Below, piece after piece: positions 12,001 through 18,000 of a DNA stretch of 31,040 bases. The position numbers were made by a program. Position 1 is the first letter of the stretch, and each line of letters starts with the position of its first letter. The stretch is from Escherichia coli (GTDB lineage Bacteria > Pseudomonadota > Gammaproteobacteria > Enterobacterales > Enterobacteriaceae), in NCBI RefSeq assembly GCF_030013205.1, contig NZ_CP122651.1; one strand, 5' to 3'.

Positions 12001-15000
12001 TGGCCCTGTGGGGGCCTTTGTCCGGCACCAGTTACGGCATTGCCGGGCTGCTGATGCTGGCAGTCAGCCACCGGCTGTACCGGGCGGAAGACAGAGCGGA
12101 ACGTCTGGCGCTGGTCGCCTGCCTGCTGGCTGTTATTCCGGCGCTTAACCTTGCCACCAGTGATGCAGCGGCGGTGGCCGGTCTTGTGATGACGGTGCTG
12201 ACCGTTGGTCTGGTGTCGTGTGCAGGAAAATCATTACCCCGTTTCTGGCCCGGGGATTTTTTCCCGGTATTCTACGCCTGTCATCTGGCTGTGCTGGGCG
12301 TTCTGGCGTTGTGACTGGTATGATACTGACGCTGATTCTGATTATTAATAAACAACATAACACAGGATATTTATGAAAATTACGGATCACAAACTCTCTG
12401 AAGGTATTGCCCTGACATTTCGTGTTCCTGAAGGAAATATAAAACATCCTTTGATTATCTTATGCCATGGGTTTTGCGGTATCAGGAATGTTCTGCTCCC
12501 TTGCTTTGCGAATGCCTTCACAGAAGCAGGATTCGCAACGATTACTTTTGATTATCGAGGATTCGGTGAGAGTGATGGAGAACGAGGGCGTCTGGTTCCT
12601 GCAATGCAGACCGAAGATATTATTTCAGTTATCAATTGGGCAGAAAAGCAGGAATGTATTGATAATCAGCGTATTGGGTTATGGGGAACATCGCTGGGAG
12701 GGGGGCATGTCTTCAGTGCAGCTGCGCAGGACCAACGCGTAAAATGTATTGTCAGCCAGCTGGCTTTTGCTGACGGTGATGTTCTGGTTACCGGAGAGAT
12801 GAATGAATCGGAGAGAGCGTCTTTTCTGTCCACGCTGAATAAAATGGCAGAAAAGAAGAAAAACACCGGGAAAGAGATGTTTGTGGGGGTTACACGGGTA
12901 CTAAGTGATGATGAATCGAAGGTATTCTTCGAGAAAATCAAAGCCCGGCATCCCGAAATGGATATAAAAATACCTTTCCTTACGGTCATGGAAACGTTGC
13001 AATATAAACCGGCAGAGAGTGCAGCCAGCGTCCAGTGCCCAGTTTTGGTTGTTATTGCCGGCCAGGATAGCGTTAATCCACCGGAACAGGGAAGAGCATT
13101 ATATGATGCTGTTGCTTCTGGTACTAAGGAATTATACGAGGAAGCTGATGCATGCCATTATGATATTTATGAAGGCGCGTTTTTTGAACGTGTAGTAGCT
13201 GTGCAGACACAATGGTTTAAACAATATCTTTAATTGTCAGTATTTATACGTTAAAGGTCGTTGAAATTAACTTCCTGTTACGATGAGTTGTTTCAACGGC
13301 CTGCAGGGCATATTTTCACGAAGGTCAGAGTAAGCATGGCAGAGCAAAAACGACCGGTACTGACACTGAAGCGGAAAACGGAAGGGGAGACGCCTGTCCG
13401 CAGCCGGAAAACCATCATCAATGTCACCACGCCACCAAAGTGGAAGGTGAAAAAGCAGAAGCTGGCCGAGAAAGCAGCCCGGGAAGCAGAGCTGGCGGCA
13501 AAAAAAGCGCAGGCCAGACAGGCGCTGTCCATTTATCTGAACCTGCCCACACTGGATGAGGCCGTGAATACCCTGAAACCCTGGTGGCCGGGATTATTTG
13601 ACGGTGACACGCCCCGGCTTCTGGCCTGCGGTATCCGGGACGTGTTACTGGAAGATGTGGCGCAGCGGAACATCCCGCTCTCGCATAAAAAACTGCGCAG
13701 GGCGCTGAAGGCCATCACCCGTTCAGAAAGCTATCTGTGTGCCATGAAAGCCGGTGCCTGCCGGTATGACACGGAAGGGTATGTAACGGAGCATATTTCT
13801 CAGGAGGAGGAAGCGTATGCGGCAGCGCGTCTGGATAAAATCCGCCGCCAGAACCGGATAAAGGCAGAACTTCAGGCCGTGCTTGATGAGAAATAAAAAA
13901 AGCCTCCCTCAGAGAGGGGAGGCAGGGAAATAAGGCTTAAAAGGAAATAACTTCCGTACCCGAAAGAAAACTAGTCCACTGAATTATTTATCACAATAAT
14001 ACTGACAACTAAAGGGGGACAGGAAAATGAATGGATTCAGAAACAGTTCACGAAACGGCCAGGTCTGGCGCTGGCAGCGTACCGGACACAGGGCTGTTAA
14101 TCTGGAAATCCGTGGATTCTGGATGGAGGCTGCTGAGGCGTGGTGTCAGGCCGCCGGAATTGCTCCCCGGGCGGACTGGCGACGATTTGCCCGGCTACGC
14201 GCAGAACGATGCCGGAAATATGGACGGAAGGAATAAATAAAGAGGCTGGCATATTTGAGATTAAATTCATAAAACTCACCAGCGATGAATCATTGCGGAT
14301 GGTGTTTCAGGAATATAAAAAAACAGCCTCCGTTTCTCCAGGGTAAGGAGGCTGAATGATGCATGAGATTTGCTTTTGTATTATGTGAGACAACCTGGCA
14401 CTCTGTATTTCCGTTCTTCAGAACGGATTACTCATGGCGCACCGGATAACCGACCGGCTTATAGTGACACAAGGATGTTTATGAATTAAGTGGTGGTTTA
14501 TTGATTTGTGATATCACTCACGGAACTCCGGGCAGCCTGACTGGTGGCAGACAATATTTTATATCCCGATAATGAAAACTTAACCAGATCGGTAGATACA
14601 CGACGTCGGGGTTGCAGTTTATTCTGTTTTATTATAGTGAATATATAATGAAAAACATGATGAGAAATGAAGCATTACGCATTGCGCTCATTGATTATGA
14701 AAACTGTTGCAATCTGAGAAATATATCGCTTGCTGATTATACCGATTTGATTTTATTTGCTGGTCCACTTCAGCAAACAGTGGTCTTACCTGCTGATACC
14801 TGGCCAGATAATATCAGAGTGAGTATCAGACAGATAGATAACATTTCGAAGAATAATGTTGACTTTCACCTTGTTATGGAGCTCGGCAGGATGACGTGCT
14901 GCAGTGCCGGAAACAACACCTGGCATATTATTTCAAACGATAAAGGCTATGATGGAATAATTCATACTCTGCAAAAACGGGGTTTTCGTTGCGAACGTAT

Positions 15001-18000
15001 TGCGCCAGAGCACGCTGAGAGTCATTTGCCGGTATCTCACCTGATTGTCCCTGAGGGGGATGTTATTATCCGGTGGGCTAACAGAATGCAGCAGGCATCC
15101 GGAAGTGATGTGCGGAATTTACCGGTGTCAGTGGAGGGGTTTAATAATTATTTAAAATCGCATATGCGAGGAGAATGGCATAAAGAACGGGCTGTGAGTA
15201 TACGTAGTGAGTTGGTTCGTCGTGGGGTAATTAAAATCCAGGCTGATAAAATTGTCTGGTTAACGAGGCGGTGACCCCTTATCACAACAGAATTATCTGT
15301 TGCAGATCTGGTTTGTCGTATTTCTGATAACGTTCAGGAAATTCATGGGATAAATATTGCGAGTCTTACTTCGGGTGAAAACTACATTCGTTCATCTGGA
15401 CTCATATGCAATTAAGGACATAATAATGAATTTAATTATTTTCATTGTGGTTGTTATTATTATAGCTGTTTTGTCTGTCCGGATAATATTCCGGAGGAGT
15501 AAAAACTGTCCTCCCGCACTGATACGGTTACATGCAGCAGGCATACGCCCCGGTGAAGCTGAGCGAATACTGGTCAGCGGTGAATACTGGCAGCGTCAGA
15601 AAACGTTGCTGACAGAAAGAGAGGTCAGTTTCATGAAAGGACTGTTCAGAATTGTGGATATGAAGCGGTGGTATCTGTGTCCGCAGGTACGGGTCGCAGA
15701 TATCGTCCAGCTGAACGGGAATATCCGGCCACGATCACGCCAGTGGTGGCAGTTATTCAGGATGGTGTCTCAGTGGCATGTTGATGTGGTTATCGTTGAG
15801 CGGCGTTCGTTCAGTATTGTTGCAGCAGTAGAGCTGGATGATGCCAGCCATTTACGACCTGAACGCAGACGCCGGGATATTCTTCTTGAAGAGGTTCTGA
15901 GGCAGGCTGGTATTCCGTTGCTCAGAAGCCACGATGCCAGAAAACTGCTGCAGATGACCGGAGAATGGCTGAATACAACAGGGGCTGCCCAGCAGTCACC
16001 GGAACATCGTAGCTGACGCCTTCGCGTTGCTCAGTTGTCCAACCCCGGAAACGGGAAAAAGCAAGTTTTCCCCGCTCCCGGCGTTTCCATAACTGAAAAC
16101 CATACTATTTCACAGTTTAAATCACATTAAACGACAGTAATCCCCGTTGATTTGTGCGCCAACACAGATCTTCGTCACAATTCTCAAGTCGCTGATTTCA
16201 AAAAACTGTAGTATCCTCTGCGAAACGATTCCTGTTTGAGTATTGAGGAGGCGAGATGTCGCAGACAGAAAATGCAGTGACTTCCTCATCAGGTACAAAG
16301 CGAGCATACAGAAAAGGTAATCCTCTGACGCTTGCAGAACGTCAGCAGGCATCCCTGGCAAGAAAACGAGCTACACATAAAGAACTCAGAGTGTTCATTC
16401 CTGCTGCGTTAAAAGCGCAATTGCAGGTGATGTGTGAAGCTGAGGGCGTTACCCAGGCTGAGATGATTGCCGAACTGATAAAGCAGAAGAGTGCTTTTAG
16501 CTAACTAAAATGTAGCGACATCACATTCTTGCCTGTTTCTGGTGTGCGTGATAGATTGCTGATCGTTTAAGGAATTTTGTGGCTGGCCACGCCGTAAGGT
16601 GGCAGGGAACTGGTTCTGATGTGGATTTACAGGAGCCAGAAAAGTGAAAACCCCGATAATCTTCTTCAAGTTTGGCGACATGAAAGATTACCGGGGCCAT
16701 CTAAAAACCGTATAGCCAACAATTCAGCTATGCGGGGAGTATAGTTATATGCCCGGAAAAGTTCAAGACTTCTTTCTGTGCTCACTCCTTCTGCGCATTG
16801 TAAGTGCAGGATGGTGTGACTGATCTTCAACAAACGTATTACCGCCAGGTAAAGAACCCGAATCCGGTATTTACACCCCGTAAAGGTGCCGGAACGCTGA
16901 AGTTCTGCGAAAAACTGATGGAAAAGGCGGTGGGCTTCACCTCCCGTTTTGATTTCGCTATTCATGTGGCGCATGCCCGTTCCCGTGGTTTGCGTCGGCG
17001 CATGCCACCGGTGCTGCGTCGACGGGCTATTGATGCGCTCCTGCAGGGGCTGTGTTTCCACTATGACCCGCTGGCCAACCGCGTCCAGTGCTCCATCACC
17101 ACGCTGGCCATTGAGTGCGGACTGGCGACGGAGTCTGCTGCCGGAAAACTCTCCATTACCCGTGCCACCCGTGCCCTGACGTTCCTGTCAGAGCTGGGAC
17201 TGATTACCTACCAGACGGAATATGACCCGCTTATCGGGTGCTACATTCCGACCGACATCACGTTCACACTGGCTCTGTTTGCTGCCCTTGATGTGTCTGA
17301 GGATGCAGTGGCAGCTGCGCGCCGCAGTCGTGTTGAATGGGAAAACAAACAGCGCAAAAAGCAGGGGCTGGATACCCTGGGTATGGATGAGCTGATAGCG
17401 AAAGCCTGGCGTTTTGTGCGTGAGCGTTTCCGCAGTTACCAGACAGAACTTAAGTCCCGTGGAATAAAACGTGCCCGTGCGCATCGTGATGCGAACAGGG
17501 AACGTCAGGATATCGTCACCCTGGTGAAACGGCAGCTGACGCGTGAAATCTCGGAAGGGCGCTTCACTGCCAGTCGTGAGGCGGTAAAACGTGAAGTGGA
17601 GCGTCGTGTGAAGGAGCGCATGATTCTGTCACGTAACCGCAATTACAGCCGGCTGGCCACCGCTTCCCCCTGAAAGTGACCTCCTCAGAATAATCCGGCC
17701 TGCGCCGGAGGCATCCGCACGTCTGAAGCCCGCCAGTGCACAAAAAAACAGCGCCACATACAAAAAACAACCTCATCATCCACCTTCAGGTGCATCCGGT
17801 CCCCCCTGTTTTCGATACAAAATACGCCTCACTGACGGGGAATTTTGCTTATCCACATTAAACTGCAAGGGACTTCCCGATAAGGTTACAACCGTTCATC
17901 TCATAAAGCGCCAGCCGTCAGCGTTACAGGGTGCAATGTATCTTTTAAACACCTGTTTATATCTCCTTTAAACTACTTAATTACATTCATTTAAAAAGAA

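Follow-up and report, generated by a model that had tools for sequence, protein, structure and literature searches.

Two adjacent genes between finO and the replicon of an F-type plasmid from porcine Escherichia coli raise the questions of whether they form a single functional unit, and of what proteins with nuclease folds might be doing at this place. The genes lie in a stretch of 31,040 nucleotides of contig NZ_CP122651.1 (assembly GCF_030013205.1), here called the window, of which 22 kb are 100% identical to plasmid NZ_CP122646. Gene 1 encodes a PIN7 protein of the NYN group and gene 2 a DUF2726 protein with an N-terminal transmembrane (TM) helix. An earlier note on this DNA, made from the sequence alone, had taken the pair for a possible plasmid-encoded defence or exclusion module. 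We find that the two genes are no fixed pair and assort independently in both directions, and we read them, with moderate confidence, as two independent single-gene nucleases in an accessory interval between finO and the RepFIIA replicon, gene 2 encoding a putative DNase at the inner membrane and gene 1 a putative cytosolic RNase. Most of the doubt in this reading concerns the biological role of the proteins and not the anatomy of the genes. Both families are already in Pfam and both genes are domain-annotated in RefSeq, and they are known kinds of gene rather than a new kind. What is new here is that the pair is not a unit, that DUF2726 proteins of this type (the yihA type, see below) are membrane-anchored and tied to F-type transfer operons, and that the interval serves as a swap site for nuclease genes.

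Two nuclease-fold proteins under purifying selection

The two co-oriented genes are intact, and their open reading frames (ORFs) coincide with RefSeq coding sequences (CDSs) in 100% identical plasmids (Table 1); the segment from 14000 to 16600 is shared at 100% identity with many plasmids of pig and wastewater origin. The family assignments of the earlier note, made by motif recognition, agree with profile searches. Gene 1 matches the Pfam family PIN7 (PF18475) over profile positions 1–103 of 103 (E 5.7e-17, 62.7 bits, cut-off 34), with a match to the NYN family (PF01936) that falls under the cut-off (18.5 bits, cut-off 24.2). Gene 2 matches DUF2726 (PF10881; E 1.2e-21, 77.1 bits, cut-off 24.7), and Pfam gives nothing else beyond a match to MTES_1575 that is under its cut-off (23 bits). 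These searches, which the note had proposed as a check, assigned neither protein to an unrelated, characterised family. Searches of solved structures with either sequence gave chance-level matches only (E 0.2–1.7); NCBIfam and PHROGs hold no family for the PIN7 protein, and are likewise empty for the DUF2726 protein apart from a single PHROG of unknown function.

The AlphaFold2 model of gene 1 (mean pLDDT, the predicted local distance difference test score, 78) has a PIN/NYN-type fold, and a fold search ranks NYN proteins first. PIN_7 has been described as a minimal, bacterial variant of the NYN fold with function unknown, within a group in which three to four acidic residues of the active site are conserved (Matelska et al. 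2017, PMC5499597). Residues D16, E18, N19, N69, D72, F73, S96, D98 and G100 of gene 1 are invariant among 36 homologues down to 20% identity, with D102 invariant only in an 18-sequence alignment of closer homologues. The C-terminal winged helix is a probable nucleic-acid-binding part. The family comprises 3975 cluster representatives at E ≤ 0.001, and the best 150 listed are mostly about 200 amino acids (aa) long, with matches that cover almost all of the profile, a sign that most members share the two-domain build with a C-terminal winged helix.

The membrane anchor that the note had attributed to gene 2 is well supported. The helix reaches a Kyte-Doolittle maximum of 3.36 (19-residue mean, residues 3–21) and is kept in 107 of 112 full-length members of the gene 2 clade, a count that is valid for this clade only since the DUF2726-profile search yielded almost solely enterobacterial plasmid copies. 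The mean net charge around the clade helix is +0.4 on its N-terminal side and +2.8 on its C-terminal side. Under the positive-inside rule this predicts an N-out, C-in topology, with a cytoplasmic nuclease domain. That domain has a restriction-endonuclease-like fold of the Vsr/DUF559 type, with likeness to NGO0050, I-Bth0305I and Vsr. Residues T63, E66, Q87, H118, D120, E136, D138, H142 and D151 are invariant among 18 homologues, and E136, D138 and H142 are invariant also when the comparison is extended to DUF559 proteins and to copies within tra operons. The sequence AGGA is located 8 nt 5′ of the gene 2 ATG.

Homologues of gene 2 in the same interval of Klebsiella plasmid pBIC1a and of a Raoultella plasmid were named yihA by their annotators, and yihA in the F-type plasmids examined is the DUF2726 gene. 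We note that a report on yihA (PMC4794485) has probably mixed it up with the unrelated chromosomal yihA (engB), the names being alike.

Both genes encode proteins under purifying selection, as their ratios of non-synonymous to synonymous divergence (dN/dS) are 0.14–0.17 for PIN7 and 0.19–0.25 for DUF2726. The earlier note had stated that neither has an assigned function, and this still holds: in the searchable literature, queried by family names, Pfam and protein accessions and legacy gene names, we found no functional study of either protein.

Independent assortment in the finO–repA2 interval

The location between finO and the replicon is as the earlier note had described it, and a comparison of related plasmids shows how variable the contents of this interval are. 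In R100 and pEco1162Ca the order is finO, an ANR regulator gene, a thermonuclease gene, hha, DUF2726 and repA2, with PIN7 absent; the window's PIN7 cassette stands where R100 has the thermonuclease gene and hha. Plasmid pS163-2.3 carries PIN7, the thermonuclease gene and hha, and then DUF2726, and the order in Klebsiella IncFII(K) plasmids is PIN7, a membrane protein gene, DUF2726, a 102-aa gene and a PLD nuclease gene. DUF2726 is absent from pKP19-3138-4 (PIN7, a 110-aa gene, hok), IncHI1B plasmids have PIN7 alone, adjoining genes for Ig-like proteins, and two metagenomic F-like plasmids have DUF2726 and PLD genes without PIN7. Genes for as many as four nuclease folds (NYN, thermonuclease, Vsr-like and PLD) are exchanged within the interval.

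The borders of the exchanged segments can be located by comparison with two R100-like plasmids, L002 and L003. DNA homology to both stops at about 14211–14216, and past gene 1 it resumes either at 15422 (L002), 4 bp before the DUF2726 start codon, or at 16013, just past its stop codon. The FinO proteins of these plasmids are 99% identical to that of the window and their PIN7 proteins 52–56% identical; the synonymous divergence (dS) is 0.068 for finO and greater than 2 for PIN7. The PIN7 alleles are thus old and were swapped into near-identical backbones rather than having diverged in place, and PIN7 is one of several ancient, interchangeable alleles or occupants of its slot.

Several further observations concern these borders. 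A 198-aa protein (P0036, on 9 contigs) consists of the first ~100 residues of a PIN7 allele fused to the last ~97 residues of DUF2726; it evidently arose by deletion between adjacent genes, and it shows that another PIN7 allele also directly adjoins DUF2726 in some plasmids. A 75-bp element (16013–16087) that begins at the DUF2726 stop codon and includes a hairpin has a 100% identical copy in L003, behind another gene, and an 85% identical one in the Klebsiella plasmid L004. This element may be the right border of the exchangeable cassettes or part of the repA2 control region. The 102-aa gene of the Klebsiella IncFII(K) plasmids (L004, 5479–5787) has no Pfam match and overlaps the DUF2726 stop by 4 bp. 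ORFs of the same length, known to be alike by length, lie downstream of DUF2726 in the two metagenomic F-like plasmids (L061, 7416–7724; L062, 7322–7630), and the gene is not in the window. Its product might be a partner or an inhibitor of the DUF2726 nuclease.

The two genes also differ in how widely they are distributed. DNA of the DUF2726 gene is present in 2564 of 5426 complete E. coli genomes (~47%), almost always on plasmids, and DNA of the two-gene stretch in 152 of them; PIN7 at the identity of the window's gene is found in only ~150–160 plasmids. In protein comparisons, PIN7 relatives are present in 3158 of 72,556 PLSDB plasmids, mostly from Klebsiella, and DUF2726 in more than 5000. 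Among 50,697 phage records both genes are nearly absent. The conserved backbone position that the note had ascribed to the pair therefore applies to DUF2726, a widely conserved neighbour of repA2, and not to PIN7, an interchangeable occupant. DUF2726 travels with F-type transfer genes. About 88% of the plasmids that carry it are typed as conjugative, and in two lineages the gene is inside the tra operon itself. In one group of E. coli plasmids it follows traI after an 18-bp gap and its stop overlaps the start of traX by 4 bp, and in a Serratia plasmid, where the order is traF, a hypothetical gene, DUF2726 and trbB, it overlaps each of its two neighbours by 4 bp. In these tra-operon copies neither the TM helix nor the catalytic motif has been lost.

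Most PIN7 relatives lie on chromosomes, away from conjugation genes. We traced them in 42 genome loci, of which 5 are enterobacterial plasmid sequence and 37 chromosomal; the search used a narrow alignment (A1), and the set is biased towards Gammaproteobacteria. The 37 chromosomal loci have no common neighbour or partner family, and the 135 ORFs flanking PIN7 relatives are mostly housekeeping genes, the only signal of a defence model among them being YhcG (PADLOC candidate PDC-S02) in three cases. A DUF2726 gene is within 5 kb in two of the 42 loci, a Klebsiella plasmid contig (L018) and a chromosomal locus of Gilvimarinus (L043), a distant marine bacterium. In Gilvimarinus, PIN7 and TM-anchored DUF2726 genes lie within 1 kb on the same strand; by a rough estimate such an adjacency has a ~2% chance expectation in samples of this kind, and it is no more than suggestive. 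A PIN7/DUF2726/PLD trio common to Gilvimarinus and the Klebsiella plasmids was considered and rejected, as the PLD proteins are without detectable kinship and one is on the opposite strand. In Pasteurellaceae (Glaesserella, Canicola) a PIN7 gene can precede a Vsr-like DUF559 gene. One example is Glaesserella parasuis (L006–L009, locus 5600–8700), in which an identical PIN7 protein is encoded between glyQ and glyS and is followed, depending on the strain, by a YhcG/DUF1016, a Vsr-like DUF559 or an AIPR gene; this space has the look of a small site at which single-gene defence candidates are exchanged. Two further contigs, from Streptomyces morookaense (L014, contig146) and a Collinsella metagenome-assembled genome (L015), encode PIN7 proteins 50–53% identical to that of the window. 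The ORF layout of L014 is that of the enterobacterial IncF plasmid L003, with ORFs sized as traX, finO and repA, and the ORFs downstream of PIN7 are 95% identical between L014 and L015; the likeliest origin of both contigs is contamination of the two assemblies with enterobacterial plasmid DNA.

Table 1. Coordinates and properties of the two genes and of the features that surround them in the window
Feature	Coordinates	Strand	Description
finO	13336–13896	+	Pfam FinO_N (E 1.4e-38), ProQ (E 4e-27); bounds the accessory interval on the left
Region upstream of gene 1	14237–14647		411 bp, AT-rich (GC content 0.36–0.40); backbone homology ends there
Gene 1	14648–15274	+	208 aa; RefSeq CDS WP_000794191, 'NYN domain-containing protein'; predicted cytosolic
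Gene 1, NYN/PIN-like catalytic domain	14675–15007	+	~residues 10–120
Gene 1, motifs			D16-Y-E18-N19; S67-x-N-N-V-D72-F-H; S96-x-D98-K-G-x-D102
Gene 1, C-terminal winged-helix domain	15053–15259	+	~residues 136–204
Spacer between gene 1 and gene 2	15275–15425		151 bp, specific to the window's PIN7 cassette
Gene 2	15426–16016	+	196 aa; RefSeq CDS WP_001375082, 'DUF2726 domain-containing protein'
Gene 2, N-terminal TM helix	15429–15491	+	~residues 2–22; helix of residues 2–26 in the AlphaFold2 model
Gene 2, nuclease domain	15600–15935	+	~residues 59–170
Gene 2, motifs			T63-x-R-E66; P-Q87-V-R; H118-x-D120; E136-L-D138-D-x-S-H142; R-D151
repA2/copB	16256–16504	+	RefSeq 'replication regulatory protein RepA'; bounds the accessory interval on the right
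CopA RNA (RF00042)	16642–16731		97.8 bits

The gene order in this part of the window is a 3′ remnant of traI, traX, an alpha/beta hydrolase gene, finO, a 69-aa ORF, gene 1, gene 2, repA2/copB, CopA RNA and repA1. Most of the transfer operon has been deleted, as traI is represented by its 3′ end only (in the segment 9542–11548) and a DNA methylase gene, parM, parR, IS1 and sepA lie upstream. The identical plasmid NZ_CP122646 is typed as non-mobilizable, and the same nuclease pair is also on plasmids typed as conjugative; pP136-3 (NZ_CP080226) is a conjugative plasmid with exactly these two genes. An Rfam scan of the whole window gave CopA RNA alone, with no RNA family in the finO–repA2 interval. 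Between 13850 and 16300 the number of promoter-like sites is at chance level (6 against 4.5 expected), including 14544–14573, which is within chance expectation, and a weak match at 15397–15424; over the same range there is no clear terminator between the two genes. The 69-aa ORF (14027–14236, + strand), just 3′ of finO, has a match of 24.3 bits to the ANR (AraC negative regulator) family, under the cut-off of 32; in R100 and pEco1162Ca the corresponding ORF carries the annotation of an ANR family regulator. The region of the 69-aa ORF is duplicated in L002, where the second copy precedes the thermonuclease gene. An 8-bp GC-rich hairpin at 14318–14381 (CAGCCTCC...GGAGGCTG), with a run of A ahead of it on the + strand, resembles a terminator facing the PIN7 gene if read on the – strand; it is conserved at 82–85% identity and has two copies in L002. 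A 213-aa TIR-domain protein (4994–5635, + strand; Pfam TIR_2 E 1.9e-19, SEFIR E 8e-16) is encoded directly after an IS1 copy and beside the gene for the SepA autotransporter (1–4092), and could be of a defence type or a virulence type.

Possible roles of the two proteins

In the arrangement we favour, the N-terminal helix of gene 2 would anchor the protein in the inner membrane with its Vsr-like PD-(D/E)XK endonuclease domain facing the cytoplasm, and the enzyme would cut DNA arriving at that membrane, be it from a phage or, as an incoming strand, from a rival plasmid. Being tethered, the nuclease would stay clear of the nucleoid and the resident plasmid. Gene 1 would supply, as an optional cassette, a metal-dependent NYN nuclease of the cytosol, in all likelihood an endonuclease of single-stranded RNA, whose winged helix probably picks the substrate, and we note that a bacterial NYN protein has been described as a Mn-dependent nuclease of single-stranded RNA (ssRNA; bioRxiv 10.1101/2024.04.08.588522). 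The presence of DUF2726 in tra operons suggests that the protein is produced together with the transfer apparatus, which pilus-specific phages also use as their receptor and at which other plasmids make contact. A more specific and considerably more tentative proposal is that DUF2726 proteins of the yihA type are conjugation-linked, tethered nucleases that destroy nucleic acid at its entry to the cell, serving as a layer of plasmid exclusion or as a defence against F-pilus phages. They would tell incoming from resident DNA by position and not by sequence, and the PIN7 RNase would be an optional companion directed against RNA invaders such as pilus-specific ssRNA phages.

Several points weigh against two independent nucleases with such roles. 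Vsr acts on duplex DNA, whereas the plasmid strand that enters in conjugation is single-stranded. Neither protein matches a known or candidate defence model in PADLOC-DB 2.0 (E up to 0.1), and for PIN7 guilt by association with defence is weak because its chromosomal neighbours are mostly housekeeping genes. The occurrence of PIN7 with Vsr-like nucleases in Gilvimarinus and at the Pasteurellaceae site leaves room for a looser functional link between the two. The window keeps both genes although most of its tra operon is deleted, so that their benefit, if any, would be independent of the plasmid's own transfer. Finally, the pBIC1a homologues are weakly expressed in laboratory growth, with values of 11–35 in the per-gene expression table (PMC6286996).

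The alternative that survives best, itself rather unlikely, is a housekeeping role within the plasmid, in which the DUF2726 nuclease would help to process DNA when the plasmid itself conjugates and the NYN RNase would tune the antisense circuits of FinP/traJ-FinO and CopA/repA. The pair is indeed located between finO and the copB-CopA-repA control region, and the overlapping stop and start codons of DUF2726 in the tra operons of two lineages would fit a part in transfer. This is countered by the retention of both genes in the transfer-defective deletion derivative seen in the window and by the chromosomal location of most PIN7 relatives. R100 and most E. coli IncF plasmids are without PIN7, and R100 and R1 regulate transfer and copy number normally. 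Moreover, PIN7 alleles that differ by ~45–50% in protein sequence on near-identical backbones are hard to reconcile with a conserved RNA target in the backbone.

Less probable still is the module of the earlier note, in which one protein would sense or prime and the other execute. Its attraction lies in two adjacent genes on the same strand, in their presence within the same interval of Klebsiella IncFII(K) plasmids, in the Gilvimarinus arrangement, and in the Vsr-like DUF559 gene that sometimes follows PIN7 in Glaesserella and Canicola. The pattern of assortment speaks against it, as either gene is common without the other and other genes often intervene where both are present; within the window a 151-bp gap separates the two, with a recombination junction 4 bp ahead of gene 2. 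Elsewhere the identical Glaesserella PIN7 adjoins three different downstream genes, no partner family recurs in the 37 chromosomal loci, and the PADLOC models match neither protein. The proposal that the pair acts as one unit is not borne out.

We consider it very unlikely that the genes are selfish or addictive elements, the PIN-like protein being a plasmid-stabilising toxin and the Vsr-like nuclease a free-standing endonuclease of the homing type that furthers its own spread. A Hok/Gef killer gene does occupy the same slot in other plasmids, and the exchange pattern is cassette-like. Against this, DUF2726 has a fixed place in the backbone rather than many sites, and a membrane anchor is unexpected in a homing enzyme. 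Nor does gene 1 resemble the toxin of a VapBC pair: it belongs to the NYN group and not to the VapC-type PIN toxins, it does not match the canonical PIN family (PF01850), and no antitoxin-sized gene overlaps or abuts it, the 411 bp upstream being without an annotated gene or an ORF abutting the start codon and the nearest annotated ORF being the ANR-like one. The small ORFs upstream of PIN7 were rejected as candidate antitoxins, being mutually unrelated across lineages (ANR-like, glutaredoxin-like and a 139-aa protein), and the genes upstream of PIN7 in its chromosomal relatives are unrelated as well. The least probable explanation, and one we largely discount, is that of functionless, decaying passengers kept by linkage to the replicon, for which the low expression in pBIC1a, the many truncated copies and the P0036 fusion could be cited, against dN/dS values of 0.14–0.25, catalytic residues invariant down to ~20–30% identity and intact copies that number in the thousands on plasmids of different genera.

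In E. coli and Klebsiella, genes for antibiotic resistance and virulence are carried mainly by IncF plasmids, and the DUF2726 gene has no known function though present in nearly half of complete E. coli genomes. If a tethered nuclease does restrict which rival plasmids or phages get in, a gene on plasmids in ~47% of those genomes would gain a function, with consequences for plasmid coexistence as well as for the use of pilus-specific phages against resistance plasmids. Should DUF2726 act in the transfer process, a component of the most thoroughly studied conjugation system would have been overlooked.

Comparison with known nuclease systems

Gene 1 fits PIN_7 (PF18475) fully, with a score above the cut-off, the minimal NYN fold and the conserved acidic residues. 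It is distant from the NYN ribonucleases MARF1 and LabA and from those associated with CRISPR, to which it is only 10–18% identical, with PF01936 under the cut-off. Unlike these it has a plain winged helix, with no OST-HTH/LOTUS domain or RRM detected, and no link to CRISPR or to decapping factors.

Gene 2 shares the D...E-x-D...H motif and the fold of the DUF2726/DUF559/Vsr branch of PD-(D/E)XK nucleases (Steczkiewicz et al. 2012, PMC3424549). Its clade adds to these the N-terminal membrane anchor, a linker of ~35 residues and the ties to F-type plasmids and tra operons. It is not a Vsr-type repair gene, because no cytosine methyltransferase gene adjoins it. A closer parallel in architecture is SNIPE (PD-lambda-1), a TM-anchored, N-out nuclease that cleaves phage DNA at injection and spares host DNA, and that becomes toxic when the anchor is removed (bioRxiv 10.1101/2025.11.03.685801). 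The likeness consists of a single N-terminal TM helix that leaves the N-terminus in the periplasm and the nuclease on the cytoplasmic side of the inner membrane, the topology of gene 2 being a predicted one. The two are not homologous: SNIPE is much longer and combines DUF4041 with a GIY-YIG nuclease (catalytic residue E414), and the Pfam scan of gene 2 gave neither domain. The tethered-nuclease logic suggested here for gene 2 is borrowed from SNIPE by analogy only.

The nearest counterparts in location are the thermonuclease-family gene of R100 and the PLD-family, Nuc-type proteins of the IncFII(K) plasmids, which can replace or accompany PIN7 and DUF2726 in the same finO–repA2 interval. They too are nuclease folds without an assigned plasmid role, and their folds differ from those of PIN7 and DUF2726. 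The IncFII(K) PLD protein is probably exported, since its N-terminus is signal-peptide-like, whereas PIN7 is predicted to be cytosolic and the DUF2726 nuclease to face the cytoplasm.

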